Origin: a bacterium
GTDB lineage: Bacteria; Verrucomicrobiota; Kiritimatiellia; CAIKKV01; CAITUY01
Direction: 5' to 3'
Length of the DNA stretch: 64,000 bases
NCBI GenBank assembly: GCA_037128595.1
Contig: JBAXWB010000011.1
Coordinates: 17,714-81,713, forward strand
Under the pieces are notes generated by a model that was given only the letters and a program-made list of their open reading frames with translations, made no database searches and had not been told where the DNA came from. A program made the translations under genes and the position numbers. Below are positions 33,012 through 62,267 of the stretch, piece by piece. The stretch's first letter is position 1. Every line of letters begins with the position of its first letter.

Positions 33012-34445
33012 ATGGCGGAACAAGGTTTACATTTAAGTCAGGAAATGCGCCTGCATATGGTGCTGGCGCCCCAATTGCGCCAATCCCTTGAGATGCTCCA
33101 GGCGCCCGTACTTGAGCTACGTGCCATGATCCAGGCCGAGCTGAACAGTAACCCCACGCTCGAGGAATTGCCCGCCGATGCCCCCCAAATCGAAGTGGAG
33201 AAAATCAATACGGAGCTGGAAGACCATAAGTCCATGGATTTCCGGAAAGAGTTCGAAATCCTGACGCGGCTGGACGATGAGTGGAAAGATTACTTTTTCC
33301 AGGAGCGGGAACGGAATTCCTATTCCGCCCACAGCGAGGAAAAGCGCGATTACCTCTACGAGTCCATCACCCAGACCCAGTCGCTTCAGGAGCACCTGCT
33401 CCATCAGCTGGCCCTGGCCGAATTCGGCGAGACCGACCGGGCCCTGGGGGAACTCATTATCGGCAGTATCAGTGATGATGGCTATCTCGCCTCATCCATT
33501 GAGGAACTGGCCGCCACGTGTAACGCCGATTTAGGCCACATGCAGGATATCCTCGCCATCATCCAGGACTTTGACCCGCTGGGCGTCGGCTCCCGCGACC
33601 TGCGTGAATGCCTGCTGTTCCAGTTGGAACGTCTAGGCAAGGCGGAAAGCACGGCCGGACGAATCGTCTCCGGCCATCTGGAACGGCTCGCCTCGCATAA
33701 ATTGCAGGAGATTGCCAAGGCGCTGAAGCTCCCGATCGAAGAGATTCAGGCAGCCGCCAATTTCATTGCCACCCTGGAACCCAAGCCCGGCCGCGCCTAT
33801 GGCTCTGAGTCTTCCCCCTACGTCACGCCGGAAGTGGTGGTTCAAAAGGTGGAAGGCGTTTATGTCGTCCTGATGAATGACGATGACCTCCCCCGGTTGC
33901 GGATCAGCAAGCATTACCGTTCACTGATGAATAACGAAGGCACGGGCGCCGAGGTGCGGGACTACATCCAGGACCGCGTCCGGTCCAGCGCGTTTCTCAT
34001 CAAAAGCATCCACCAGCGCCAGCAGACGATCTTCAAGATCGCGACCGAAATCGTGAAGGTGCAGCAGGACTTTTTTGATCAGGGCATCGCCCATCTCAAA
34101 CCCCTGACCATGTCCGAGGTGGCCACGGTGGTCGGTCTGCACGAGACCACGGTCAGCCGCGCCGTGGCGGGCAAACATATCCAGACCCCGCAGGGGATTT
34201 TCGAGATGAAGTATTTCTTTACGCCCGGCCTCAAAACCGATGCCGGCGGCGTCGTCTCCAATAAGACGGTCAAGGACAGCCTGGCCTCACTCGTCGCCTC
34301 GGAAGACCCGGAACACCCCCTGTCCGACCAGGAACTCCTTGAAATCCTGAATGAGCGGGGTATCCAGATCGCGCGCCGCACTGTCGCGAAATACCGGATT
34401 GCCTTGAAAATCGCCCCGTCGCATATGCGGAAGAAATACGGATAA
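33012..34445 (+). CDS. rpoN: RNA polymerase sigma-54 factor
   Basis: N-terminal activator-interacting region (LSQEMRLHMVLAPQLRQSLEMLQ), core-binding domain and C-terminal RpoN box (ARRTVAKYR). Confidence 0.95.
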   Translation: MAEQGLHLSQEMRLHMVLAPQLRQSLEMLQAPVLELRAMIQAELNSNPTLEELPADAPQIEVEKINTELEDHKSMDFRKEFEILTRLDDEWKDYFFQERERNSYSAHSEEKRDYLYESITQTQSLQEHLLHQLALAEFGETDRALGELIIGSISDDGYLASSIEELAATCNADLGHMQDILAIIQDFDPLGVGSRDLRECLLFQLERLGKAESTAGRIVSGHLERLASHKLQEIAKALKLPIEEIQAAANFIATLEPKPGRAYGSESSPYVTPEVVVQKVEGVYVVLMNDDDLPRLRISKHYRSLMNNEGTGAEVRDYIQDRVRSSAFLIKSIHQRQQTIFKIATEIVKVQQDFFDQGIAHLKPLTMSEVATVVGLHETTVSRAVAGKHIQTPQGIFEMKYFFTPGLKTDAGGVVSNKTVKDSLASLVASEDPEHPLSDQELLEILNERGIQIARRTVAKYRIALKIAPSHMRKKYG

Positions 34446-38824: not shown

Positions 38825-38860
38825 CTGCTCACTGCCTACTGCCCACTGCCCACTGGCTTC
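38825..38860 (-). repeat. tandem heptad repeat array (CAGTGGG-CAGTGGG-CAGTAGG-CAGTGAG-CAG) in the trp leader; same family as 62186-62267
   Basis: Direct reading of the minus strand. It shares the flanking GAAGC (plus cactggcttc) with the second locus. Confidence 0.7.
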
Positions 38861-43835: not shown

Positions 43836-43930
43836 AAAAAAACTCCGTGCCTCCCAAAAACCGGAGACACGGAGAATACTACACGCGATTAGCCCCAAGA
43901 AGAAAAATTTAACCGCGAAACACGCTAAAA

Positions 43931-43961
43931 ACGCGAAAAAGTATTAATCCCCCTTTCGCGT
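43931..43961 (-). terminator. candidate intrinsic terminator for gnd (minus strand): ACGCGAAA-15 nt loop-TTTCGCGT followed by UUUUAG
   Basis: 8-bp perfect stem seen in sequence, followed on the minus strand by TTTTAGCGTG. It lies 32-62 nt downstream of the gnd stop. Confidence 0.35.
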
Positions 43962-43992
43962 GTTTCGTAGTCGACCCCCTCCTGAATCTGAT

Positions 43993-55645: not shown

Positions 55646-55791
55646 ATTTCACTCCTCAGCTCCGTTTTGAAACCAAAGGGGTTAATTGACTCTATTTTGA
55701 AACCAACGTCGAGCCAGAACCTAGGACAGGCGAATCCAAATACTGTAAAAGTGGAATTTCGCTTATTCGCACTGACGGGAAAAGAAGGAAC

Positions 55792-56101
55792 TTTACCACG
55801 GAGGAGCGGAGATTTAGAGAGAGAGCAGGAAATGCAAATGTGGCGTTTATTTCGCCCCCATGAGTACATGTGGCCGAAATAAACGCCACGGTTTCCTTGA
55901 GGAATACAGGAGTGCCTTTCGATACCTCAAATAACTCACTGCAGGTAAACTCGCGGCACAGCACGTCATCTTTAGCTCCACTCACTTGGTATTACTCCAG
56001 AAAAACCGGTGCGGGATTTGTAATTCGGGTACTCCGGAATTACAAATCCCGCACCATTATATTTGTATTCTCTCCCTAAATCTCCGCTCCTCCGTGGTAA
56101 A
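55792..56101. mobile_element. MITE-like non-coding element, roughly 310 bp, bounded by 32-bp terminal inverted repeats (TTTACCACGGAGGAGCGGAGATTTAG[A/G]GAGAGA, 31/32 match) and containing two long perfect internal hairpins
   Basis: Seen in sequence. Left TIR 55792-55823, right TIR 56070-56101. Hairpin A has a 15-bp stem (55840-55854 / 55875-55889). Hairpin B has a 19-bp stem (56008-56026 / 56037-56055). No ORF, and lower GC than the flanks. Confidence 0.55.
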
Positions 56102-56165
56102 CGTTCTCTTTATTTTGTGCGTTTTATTGGCCCGGTTTTGCGCTATGCTTTGCGCCCTCATGACC

Positions 56166-60811: not shown

Positions 60812-62203
60812 ATGCACCTCCCCGATATTCTTGGACAAACAGGCGTGATTATTGCACAATCTGGCATTGTGAAATTAAGACCCGAGACCTCTGAGCTCAC
60901 CCATCTGCTGCAGGAAATCGAAGAGATTGCCGGACAAGGGGCCGTTTATCACGCCCTTTACGAGCGGCAGGTGCTTCTGAACAAAAAAGTCTGCACCTTC
61001 TGCCGACAGGCACTGGCCCATCCGGTCGCCGCCTCGTTATGCCGGGTGGCCTGCTGTAATGGGACCTTGCAATCAATGAGCGCGGGGGAGCCGTATTATT
61101 TCCGATGCTGGGCCAATCTGCTGGTGATCGCCATTCCGGTGGCGCCCCATGGCAAGTGCATCGGCGGCATTACGCTGGGCGGCTTCTGTGTGAGTGGCGA
61201 AAAACCGGACATCCGGGAGGCCGTTACCCAGTTGGCCCGGTCATGGCCTGACGCCCATCCCGCCACCTTCCTGAAGCAATTGGAGTCGGTGAAACTCATC
61301 ACTCCCGCCGCCTTGAGAGGCCTGGGGGCCCTGGCGATGGAGACCACCTTTTCCAATGGCATTAATTCGAGTGAGTTTTTCCGCAGGCAAAATGGGAAAT
61401 ATCTCCAGCAACGCCGGATCGCCGAGGCGGCCGCCGAGATCCGGGAGAACCCTGAGGCCACGCCGGACATCCCGGGCAATACCTATCAGCTCATTACATT
61501 TCTGAATAAGGGCAATAAGCCTGAGGCCCACACCTTCATTTCGCAATATCTCGCAAAACTCCTGCTGGCGAGTAATTGGGACCCGCTAAAATTGAAGGCC
61601 CATCTTCGCGTCCTGCTGGCCGTCATGACGAGTCAGGATATTCTGCGGGGCACCCCCTGGGCGGTCGCCACCAGCCGGGAACTGCGCAACATGGTCCGGC
61701 TGGAGCAGGCCCGCACGACGGAGGAAAGCTGTTACGAGGTGACGGAATGGATCCAGCAGTTTTTTGTCGGACAGAACACCCTGACTCACGACGGGCGCAG
61801 CCTGGCCGAGCGGGTCACCCACTGGCTTCAATCCCATTATCCGGAGAGCGTCACGCTTGACCTGGCATCAAAGGCCGTGGGGGTGAGTTCCTCAACGCTC
61901 GTGCACCGCTTACGGCAGGAAGTGGGAAAAACCTTCAAGGAAATCCTCACCGAGATCCGTATTTCAGAGGCCAAGAAATTCCTCGCCACCACCTCGCTGG
62001 ACATCAGCGGTATCGGGGACGCCTGCGGTTTCTTCGACCAGAGCCATTTTACGCGGGAATTCAAGAAAGCCATCAATCTCACCCCGGGCGCATTCCGGAA
62101 ACTGCTCCGCGTGCCCGACGAAGCCCTGAACCGGCCCGGCAGCGGAAATCTCGATGAAACCGCGCCTTTGAGAAAACGGAAGACAGTTAGCAGTAAGCAG
62201 TAG
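60812..62203 (+). CDS. AraC-family transcriptional regulator with an N-terminal Cys-rich sensory (PocR-like) domain
   Basis: C-terminal dual HTH_AraC (LASKAVGVSSSTLVHRLRQ ... ISGIGDACGFFDQSHFTREFKK). The last five codons (VSSKQ) are encoded by the heptad repeat. Confidence 0.8.
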   Translation: MHLPDILGQTGVIIAQSGIVKLRPETSELTHLLQEIEEIAGQGAVYHALYERQVLLNKKVCTFCRQALAHPVAASLCRVACCNGTLQSMSAGEPYYFRCWANLLVIAIPVAPHGKCIGGITLGGFCVSGEKPDIREAVTQLARSWPDAHPATFLKQLESVKLITPAALRGLGALAMETTFSNGINSSEFFRRQNGKYLQQRRIAEAAAEIRENPEATPDIPGNTYQLITFLNKGNKPEAHTFISQYLAKLLLASNWDPLKLKAHLRVLLAVMTSQDILRGTPWAVATSRELRNMVRLEQARTTEESCYEVTEWIQQFFVGQNTLTHDGRSLAERVTHWLQSHYPESVTLDLASKAVGVSSSTLVHRLRQEVGKTFKEILTEIRISEAKKFLATTSLDISGIGDACGFFDQSHFTREFKKAINLTPGAFRKLLRVPDEALNRPGSGNLDETAPLRKRKTVSSKQ

Positions 62204-62267
62204 GCAGATACCAAATTCTACCCACTGTCTACTGCCCACTGCTTACTGCCCACTGCTCACTGGCTTC
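62186..62267. repeat. heptad-repeat element: 2.4 CAGTRRG units on the plus strand (62190-62207) facing 6 units on the minus strand (62221-62262); forms a 17/18-bp hairpin between convergent genes
   Basis: Direct reading. Plus 62190-62207 pairs with 62232-62249. It shares cactggcttc with the 38825-38860 locus. Confidence 0.7.

Follow-up and report, generated by a model that had tools for sequence, protein, structure and literature searches.

A MITE mobilized by a DDE transposase is defined by terminal repeats together with target duplications, and the mobility of Correia elements was inferred from insertion polymorphism between close strains; Correia units also contain functional promoters (PMC3184786). 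SPRITEs are terminator-like palindromic repeats that spread through a genome (PMC3184786). The ends of the REP super-families are imperfect palindromes of 20 to 40 nt tagged with GTAG or CGTC (PMC3733652), and in REPINs a hairpin that forms in single-stranded DNA or in mRNA is kept by compensatory changes (PMC3116915).

Here we compare with these systems a segment at positions 55792-56101 of the window, by which we mean the whole 64-kb stretch of DNA that was analyzed. The segment is an inserted, noncoding, repeat-bounded element and not native promoter DNA. In the best explanation, to which we assign a probability of roughly 70%, it is the core of an ~395-nt nonautonomous, noncoding palindromic mobile element that was inserted in the short divergent control region between an epimerase operon and queG.

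The insertion and its empty sites in relatives

The window is ordinary core chromosome, and no transposase or recombinase domain or gene was found in its 64 kb. A long sugar operon led by an aldose 1-epimerase gene runs on the minus strand, and the divergent gene on the plus strand encodes a Fer4_16 protein given in the sources as epoxyqueuosine reductase (queG); these are the neighbors that the sequence-only reading had named. The epimerase (NCBI MEI6167259.1) and QueG (MEI6167260.1) are encoded on the same 131,939-bp MAG contig, and because their accessions are consecutive, no annotated gene lies between them. The first in-frame ATG of queG is at 56145, with further in-frame ATGs at 56160 and 56166. 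The nearest species representative is a Kiritimatiellia MAG with 78% amino acid identity, which is not syntenic at the epimerase/queG locus. Elsewhere in the window, other heptamer-repeat hairpins stand at places where terminators are expected, for example at 62184-62255 between convergent genes.

By exact-protein look-ups, we recovered four related lineages, R95, E110, E012, and O104. R95 is a strain with 95%-identical proteins, present in two samples (L005, L097, and L098), E110 comprises L110-L115, and the widespread E012 comprises L012-L015 and L099-L103. O104 (L104-L109) has a DUF4160/DUF2442 gene pair upstream of queG instead. E012 and E110, both Kiritimatiellia-like, have the gene order of the window, with the epimerase divergent from queG, followed by folD and fhs; only 103 to 119 nt separate their epimerase and queG start codons, and this is the entire divergent control region. 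Their empty sites (L012/L099-L103 and L110-L115) read ...AACCTT(G/C)GA-TTTCC-ATT(G/A)G....

Compared with these empty sites, the window and R95 carry an insertion of ~395 nt that follows GGA and spans 55727-56121, with boundaries good to ~1 to 5 nt. The insertion consists of 65 nt of outer DNA (55727-55791), the 310-nt repeat-bounded unit, and ~20 nt of outer DNA on the right (56102-56121), and both outer segments are absent from the empty sites. It leaves 81 nt of native sequence on the operon side and 23 nt on the queG side. The former, the epimerase-proximal control region (55646-55726, minus strand), is found in all syntenic relatives, filled or empty, and contains two conserved direct repeats, CTC(C/T)(G/A)TTTTGAAACCAA; the latter (56122-56144, plus strand) is the sole native DNA remaining upstream of queG. 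A sigma-54 promoter reading of TTGGC(A/C)CGGTTTT upstream of queG was dropped because the spacing proved inconsistent among the relatives when checked by hand. This accounts for the unusual 500-nt distance between the sugar operon and queG: the native control region is only ~100 nt long and is split by selfish DNA. For regulatory models of the sugar operon and queG, the compact relatives are the proper reference.

The presence of the element does not follow the genome tree. In the flanking genes, R95 (filled) is sister to E110 (empty), with 95.6 to 96.5% nucleotide identity, the window is 92 to 93% identical to both, and E012 lies further out. Comparison of the window with R95 gave 2 differences in 144 positions (1.4%) for the assembled part of the repeat-bounded unit and 17 in 189 (9%) for its surroundings, among which we counted the outer segments of the inserted DNA (Fisher P = 0.003). 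This step in divergence coincides exactly with the ends of the arms, the closest differences being 4 nt beyond the left arm and 1 nt beyond the right one. The outer-left segment differs between the filled strains at 5 of 65 positions, which is the flank rate, and the outer-right segment differs at 3 of 20. The unit is therefore either more recent in its common ancestry than the DNA around it or much more strongly constrained.

Contigs that reach these elements mostly end inside them, which is a practical nuisance. Eight of the ten fetched contigs, from independent assemblies, that reach either copy of the element (the second copy is described below) end within it, with ends at 55821 (in the left arm), 55857, and 56024. 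We set these breaks aside as proof of repeats, since we would not expect exact arms of 19 to 26 nt to collapse a k=31 graph. They could reflect other copies, population variants, or hairpin-induced loss of coverage, and they are compatible with repeats without proving them.

Anatomy and folding of two copies

The arms of the long inverted repeat lie at 55792-55824 (plus strand) and 56069-56101 (minus strand) with 244 nt between them. They are 33 nt long and 97% complementary, so that the 32-bp inverted repeats described from the sequence alone (31/32) were recovered with a slightly longer extent (32/33), and the sole mismatch is 55818 A versus 56075 C. A search for the arm that allowed up to three mismatches returned these two sites only in the 64 kb and none in 100 dinucleotide shuffles. 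The left arm is built of degenerate tandem heptads and octads (CACGGAGG AGCGGAGA TTTAGAGA), and its pattern TTTACCACGGAG-NNN-CGGAGA is common to the second copy and to the consensus of a wider family.

Two hairpins stand between the arms, and their perfect stems of 15 and 19 bp are as previously described. Hairpin A (55831-55898) has imperfect 32-nt arms (55831-55862 and 55867-55898) around a perfect 15-bp core (55840-55854 and 55875-55889), with an apical CATG/CATG stem and the tip GAGTAC at 55862-55867. Hairpin B (56008-56055) has 22-nt arms that are 95% complementary, including the perfect 19-bp stem (56008-56026 and 56037-56055), and its tip at 56029-56034, GTACTC, is the complement of the tip of hairpin A. 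Each hairpin is followed by a motif that is kept in four of four end modules of the two copies, CGGTTTCCTTGAGGAATAC at 55889-55907 on the plus strand for the left module and CGGTTTTTCTGGAGTAATACC at 55988-56008 on the minus strand for the right. Between these motifs lies a poorly conserved, variable center (55908-55987), which shows gaps of 27 and 11 nt against the second copy and gave no blastn match anywhere in the fetched DNA.

The minus strand following hairpin B reads GGTTTTTCTGGAG and does contain the U-run that had been pointed out. However, because each of the four hairpins in the two known copies is followed by the same motif, CGGTTTC(T)..GGAG, the run is a family feature and not a bespoke terminator. 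Simple scans called no sigma-70-type promoter and no canonical terminator in either copy and thus do not support the suggestion that the segment supplies promoter or terminator function. The segment had also been called ORF-less and lower in GC than its neighbors. ORFs of 44 to 97 amino acids in fact overlap it, but none is conserved in the second copy; its GC content of 47% is below that of the coding neighbors (58% for the window) but not below that of the flanking intergenic DNA (43 to 44%).

A sensitive blastn search of the unit against all fetched DNA identified the second, diverged copy in the E110 lineage (L110:1581-2000). At 420 nt, compared with 395 nt in the window, it has no transposase and shares no conserved ORF with the window copy; the gapped alignment with the window unit spans 278 nt at 63% identity. 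Oriented the other way round, it separates the stop codon of the epimerase from the next operon gene, 1 kb from the queG-side site, and its arms form a perfect 32-nt repeat (AAGATTTACCACGGAGACACGGAGACACAAAG). This second site is empty in the window (54748/54749, with GAGATATGC on one side of the junction and AAAAGGATT on the other), in R95, and in E012. Insertion polymorphism is thus seen at two sites, with an element in some lineages and none in others. The sisters R95 and E110 are two gain/loss events apart within 1 kb.

The insert at site 2 is likewise larger than its repeat-bounded part. The outer-left segment of the window is homologous to the matching end of the second copy (ACAGGCGAATCCAAATAC... 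versus ACAGGGCGCAAATAAC...), and the outer-right segment is partly alignable, although it is 20 nt long in the window and ~60 nt, or ~40 nt longer, in the second copy. Such ragged outer ends could mean that fragments were transferred by recombination. The true ends of the insertion show weak inverted similarity only, and 65 and ~20 nt of inserted DNA lie outside the 33-nt repeat. No target-site duplication was found at site 1, and site 2 shows only a doubtful 4/5 match (GAAAG/AAAAG).

In each copy, one end module occurs twice in inverted orientation, and the four modules can be aligned with one another. Every module combines a leader rich in purines, tandem CACGGAG-type heptads that form the arm (TTTACCACGGAG-NNN-CGGAGA), a variable spacer, a hairpin whose GAGTAC tip is invariant, and the post-hairpin motif CGGTTTCT-NGGAG-NAATACC. 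Because this invariant tip recurs in inverted modules, hairpins A and B have complementary tips. Across the copies, hairpin A matches A (L110:1814-1874) and hairpin B matches B (L110:1694-1740), in both cases with compensatory changes and, for hairpin A, with the GAGTAC tip unchanged. The long arms of a copy match each other exactly or nearly so, whereas 7 of 28 positions distinguish the arms of one copy from those of the other. These two independent copies are the known members of the hairpin-module subfamily.

RNAalifold, run on the two copies, returned 74 consensus pairs, 16 of which are kept through changes on both sides, including pairs of the hairpin A apical stem (CATG/CATG in the window versus CTGCG/CGCAG in L110). 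Each of the three helices is preserved through compensatory changes. The predicted fold energies of the two strands are -158 and -168 kcal/mol for the window copy and -167.5 and -166.5 kcal/mol for the second copy. Our attempt to assign a strand from folding energies and G-U pairs failed because both strands fold equally well; neither copy has an asymmetry beyond the effect of the conserved tetraloops. The folded state matters, and there is no sign of an RNA made from one strand. Against Rfam 15, the window element gave no match at an E value of ≤10, and the second copy gave sub-threshold noise only.

A family of arms in phage-like contigs and an RNA-level alternative

A scan of IMG/VR with TTTACCACGGAGNNNCGGAGA returned one coincidental phage coding sequence (8 hits) and four genuine inverted-repeat elements, the latter on contigs of 39 to 69% GC. 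The pattern ACCACGGAGRCACGGAG occurs in at least 120 IMG/VR contig stretches, with at least 254 arms and up to 7 per locus of ≤14 kb, and these stretches form at least 73 groups without nucleotide-level relatedness. The arm consists of degenerate CACGGAG(R) units in tandem and is represented at the family level by the patterns ACCACGGAGNNNCGGAG and TTTACCACGGAG. Its consensus, (A-rich)TTC-ACCACGGAG-R-CACGGAG-RN-CACGGAG-A(A-rich), is neither palindromic nor tagged with GTAG or CGTC, and similarity at noncore positions is 0.56 within a pair versus 0.42 between pairs. The motif was not found in Rfam or in a full-text search of 8 million papers. Arm-rich loci likewise matched no arm-related Rfam family, and a match to Acido-Lenti-1 RNA in L140 is unrelated to the arms.

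The ends of the element belong to this widespread, apparently undescribed repeat family, which is also common in phage-like contigs. We tie the window element to the family because the arms of the second copy match the family core exactly and its modules match those of the window; the link runs through the arms, as the GAGTAC hairpin modules occur in none of the IMG/VR family members listed. The window-specific 20-mer ACGGAGGAGCGGAGATTTAG had no match in GTDB representatives or IMG/VR; this pattern is subfamily-specific, and a single match in JGI metagenomes is a chance one in an unrelated, apparently eukaryote-like contig. A blastn search of the element against plasmid and phage records found no match. 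The arm motif marks a large family of palindromic elements that spans at least 73 unrelated groups of phage-like contigs and a bacterial chromosome.

Among the matches listed, 68 adjacent plus/minus arm pairs were found, most with an outer size of 57 to 310 nt and eight larger (450 to 6,000 nt); many members have spacers as short as ~20 to 40 nt. Short pairs are bare hairpins. Pairs 220 to 480 nt apart usually hold one small ORF, which starts right after the plus arm and fills 75 to 89% of the interval, and the largest pairs (1.3 to 6 kb) enclose phage genes. Compared with random positions, the arms among the matches listed are depleted inside long ORFs (62% versus 90%) and enriched just upstream of ORF starts (21% versus 12%). 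One 160-nt member, in L124, is read through in frame inside a 689-aa ORF. Direct repeats flanking the 59 family pairs listed are at chance level (5 of 2 nt versus 3.7 expected, and none of 4 nt or more). No enzyme recurs near the arms in the at least 120 loci, where only phage structural proteins recur, and neither there nor among the genes of the 64-kb window did we find an autonomous IS with the same ends. We abandoned a filled/empty comparison among related phage contigs as a way to define the family ends, as the intergenic regions are too fluid; these contigs carry different heptamer arms, or nothing, at orthologous positions.

The element is selfish DNA and not a purpose-built regulator or RNA gene. 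It may move or be copied as a folded single strand. Mobility would probably depend on a structure-specific enzyme supplied in trans, as for REPINs and IS200/IS605-type elements and not as for DDE MITEs. Locally, it is most likely mainly a passenger that splits the 103- to 119-nt bidirectional control region. Any transcript crossing it would be expected to form a 33-bp stem closing two long hairpins, which could block or process read-through.

On a broader scale, we tentatively offer a proposal that we hold to be possible but doubtful. The CACGGAG-heptad arms may constitute an undescribed "bracket" mobility system of phages and PVC-type bacteria, in which folded inverted arrays and their cargo would be copied to new sites by a putative hairpin-specific enzyme without target duplication. 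The cargo might be nothing, a small ORF, or structured modules such as the GAGTAC-tipped hairpins, and the Kiritimatiellia copies would be a cargo-carrying branch. If the spread of the family is enzyme driven, it points to an uncharacterized hairpin-dependent mobility mechanism in phages of high-GC hosts.

The main rival places the function of the arms in RNA. CACGGAG/CTCCGTG arms would form a terminator-like or ribosome-binding-site-sequestering stem around a cargo, which may be nothing, a small ORF, or, in the window, two hairpins. The cassette would be spread between phage and host by recombination and not by transposition, and at this locus it would insulate or attenuate transcription and be a substrate of RNase III. 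The bracketing of single ORFs by phage arm pairs and the enrichment of arms upstream of ORF starts agree with this explanation, as do the three GGAG motifs of the plus arm and the flanks, where A predominates upstream and T downstream, a pattern seen in bidirectional terminators. The window also has heptamer-repeat hairpins at terminator places (e.g., 62184-62255), the variable extent of the outer segments fits recombination, and no target-site duplication is present. However, identical arms of 17 to 25 nt occur in at least 73 unrelated contig groups of 39 to 68% GC, a distribution that requires the sequence itself to have spread horizontally. The two strands fold equally well, no G-U asymmetry marks a transcribed strand, and simple scans call no promoter or terminator. 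The sister-lineage copy lies inside an operon, where a strong terminator would be costly, and the L124 member is read through in frame. In short, ORF bracketing and ragged outer ends favor the RNA-level explanation, while the spread of identical arms and the missing strand signal speak against it, and we judge it unlikely.

Weaker alternatives and comparison with described systems

Three further readings are contradicted by tests specific to each. Very little probability remains for an inverton, in which the 244-nt stretch enclosed by the 33-nt repeats would be inverted by a site-specific recombinase, switching the operon or queG on and off. The window element is presumably similar to known invertons in size, repeat length, and location between divergent genes, and the contig that ends in the left arm at 55821 could be read in this sense. 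Yet the interior faces the same way relative to the flanks in every assembly that includes part of it: for this copy, the window, L097/L098, and L002/L005, which come from three samples, and for the second copy, L110/L111/L114. Close relatives lack the element here, and it is found at a different site as well; many family spacers are just ~20 to 40 nt long, the 64-kb window has no recombinase gene, and no promoter-like site lies inside.

A further reading is a locus-specific structured noncoding RNA, or a cis-regulatory leader of queG or the sugar operon, with paired 5' and 3' ends; the sequence-only reading had offered a structured noncoding RNA with such pairing as its alternative. Its very stable predicted fold (-158 to -168 kcal/mol), its covarying helices, and the far better conservation of the unit than of the flanks between the two filled strains are all features such an RNA would share. 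This reading is largely refuted by the empty sites, as sister and outgroup lineages have the same genes without the element, and the other copy sits in a different context, inside the operon. The two strands do not differ in how well they fold, and no match to Rfam was obtained even at an E value of ≤10. Perfect stems of 15 to 33 bp without G-U pairs are, moreover, atypical of functional RNAs, and we regard a locus-specific RNA as highly improbable. A type I toxin-antitoxin-like module, in which long-range 5'-3' pairing would lock the mRNA of a small toxic peptide, is barely credible and was rejected for want of a conserved ORF: the element presumably resembles hok/sok-type loci in size, long-range pairing, and patchy distribution, and ORFs of 24 to 86 amino acids are present, but none is common to both copies, the frames are broken differently in each, and a six-frame peptide search against a 5.8-billion-protein collection scored nothing among the candidates listed, a weak negative.

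We return to the mobile palindromic element as the preferred reading. The description of the segment as MITE-like holds insofar as it is inserted, noncoding, and repeat-bounded, is missing at this position from two related lineages with the same gene order, has a diverged copy at a second site, and shares its arm motif with many unrelated contigs. Classical MITE status fails in that there is no target-site duplication, the repeats appear to be subterminal, and no related transposase was found in the window or near the arms. The 64-kb window holds one copy; across genomes, the element is not the single, syntenic, conserved copy with a repeat found nowhere else that would have indicated a locus-specific region.

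Like the bacterial MITEs Correia/CREE, ERIC, RUP, and Nezha, the element is small, has no transposase, carries inverted repeats around a core, has a stable predicted fold, is intergenic, and shows insertion polymorphism. Unlike them, it lacks a flanking target-site duplication and has repeats that appear to be subterminal; no parent IS with the same ends is known, and no promoter was detected, in contrast to Correia units. The likeness to REPINs, which are REP doublets mobilized by RAYTs, extends to two conserved inverted ends, a variable spacer, folding of the whole unit into a long hairpin, compensatory changes, and an intergenic, multicopy distribution, here without a classical target-site duplication. 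In contrast to REPINs, its ends are tandem CACGGAG heptads and not short palindromes, and they bear no GTAG or CGTC tag. The unit, at 300 to 420 nt, exceeds the ~70 to 110 nt of REPINs and carries two hairpin modules in addition, members of the family are found in phage-like contigs and may flank ORFs, and no RAYT was found in the 64-kb window. The family therefore departs from MITEs in target duplication and from REPs in the tag, and shows REPIN-like compensatory evolution.

More distant parallels concern single features. SPRITEs share the spread of terminator-like palindromic repeats, and RPEs are palindromic elements tolerated in frame inside coding genes, as in the L124 case. Both differ from the element in being of unrelated sequence and in different hosts, whereas its arms are heptad arrays with variable cargo and its family occurs in many phage-like contigs. 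The PeSL cassettes of T4-type phages are promoter-plus-stem-loop direct repeats of one phage group that flank small ORFs and promote modular shuffling. The arm family resembles them as repeated stem-loop sequences flanking small ORFs in phage genomes; unlike PeSL cassettes, its brackets are inverted arms that occur in many unrelated contigs and in a bacterial chromosome. Set beside these systems, the element is a new MITE/REPIN-like palindromic mobile element; it is neither an invertible switch nor a locus-specific RNA, and it does not qualify as a classical MITE.

Direct repeats and the junction upstream of queG

Immediately upstream of the epimerase start lie two direct repeats, CTCCGTTTTGAAACCAA (55660-55676) and CTCTATTTTGAAACCAA (55690-55706), placed 30 nt apart. 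Both are kept in all syntenic relatives, whether filled or empty at the epimerase-queG site, and they probably act as the sugar operon's operator or promoter element. On the other side, the sequence TTGGC(A/C)CGGTTTT(C/G)CGC immediately upstream of queG bears a superficial likeness to a -24/-12 element, and the window carries an rpoN (sigma-54) gene at 33012-34445. The -24/-12 reading was rejected, as the spacing was found by hand to vary inconsistently among relatives.

In a more distant relative (L104-L109, e.g., L104:1-1983), whose queG is 79% identical at the nucleotide level, queG is preceded by a DUF4160/DUF2442 gene pair together with an HTH/Peptidase_M78 gene. Homology of these stretches to the compact relatives restarts at the GGATTTCC junction, which is the site of the window's insertion. 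This junction looks like a recurrent breakpoint.

Contig ends within the element

In independent assemblies, contigs break off within the element, and this is true of both known copies. One contig (L001) ends in the left arm at 55821, and two of the R95 strain (L097 and L098) end in hairpin A at 55857. L002 and L005, which come from two different strains and samples, share their end point, 56024 in hairpin B. In the sister lineage, L111, L114, and L115 all end inside that lineage's own copy (L110:1581-2000). The breaks could come from other copies of the element, from coverage loss induced by the hairpins, or from variation within the population, for instance (AG)n slippage at 55816-55825. The exact arm lengths are 19 to 26 nt, below k=31.

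Other heptamer-repeat hairpins

The window also holds a palindrome of a second heptamer-repeat kind at 62184-62255, CAGTTAGCAGTAAGCAGTAGGCAG ... CTGCCCACTGCTTACTGCCCACTG, with 24-nt arms that are 88% complementary. The palindrome sits between the stops of two convergent genes, one AraC/PocR-like (end 62203) and one encoding BFN/UVR domains (end 62266), a position where a bidirectional terminator would be expected. A lone arm of the same CACTGCC type is found immediately upstream of trpE (38825-38860), and a short hairpin of CGCGAAA/CACGCTA type lies between gnd and an ABC permease gene (43914-43967). Arm-bearing phage contigs show the heptamer variants CACAGAG, CACGAAG, and CGCGGAG. Having several sequence types of heptamer-repeat hairpin seems to be a habit of both the source genome and these contigs.

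Upstream of the epimerase orthologue in the Kiritimatiellia GTDB representative, we observed an unrelated-looking element (L017:2690-2860) with a 16-bp perfect inverted repeat, TTTGAACAGAAGCACG ... CGTGCTTCTGTTCAAA, and a spacer of about 115 nt. Its inner arm runs on into CGCGAAG-type repeats, as in some phage variants.

CACGGAG arms in phage-like contigs

In the phage-like contigs, CACGGAG arms bracket single small ORFs (66 to 129 aa) almost exactly (L216:6429-6673, L207:966-1268, L158:8103-8368, and L187:4920-5369). The + arm is followed by the start codon after a gap of 0 to 3 nt, and in L216 and L207 the - arm comes directly after the stop. Another arm-bearing IMG/VR contig contains an Acido-Lenti-1 RNA (RF01687; L140:3218-3263; 54 bits versus a threshold of 37), with a CTCCGCG-type arm following roughly 50 nt downstream. 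This RNA is unrelated to the arms but gives a hint that the host is of an Acidobacteria or Lentisphaerae type. One family member, 160 nt long and with 25-nt arms that are perfect (L124:2246-2405), lies on a contig of 69% GC. It is read through in frame within a 689-aa phage ORF, recalling the Rickettsia palindromic elements found inside genes.
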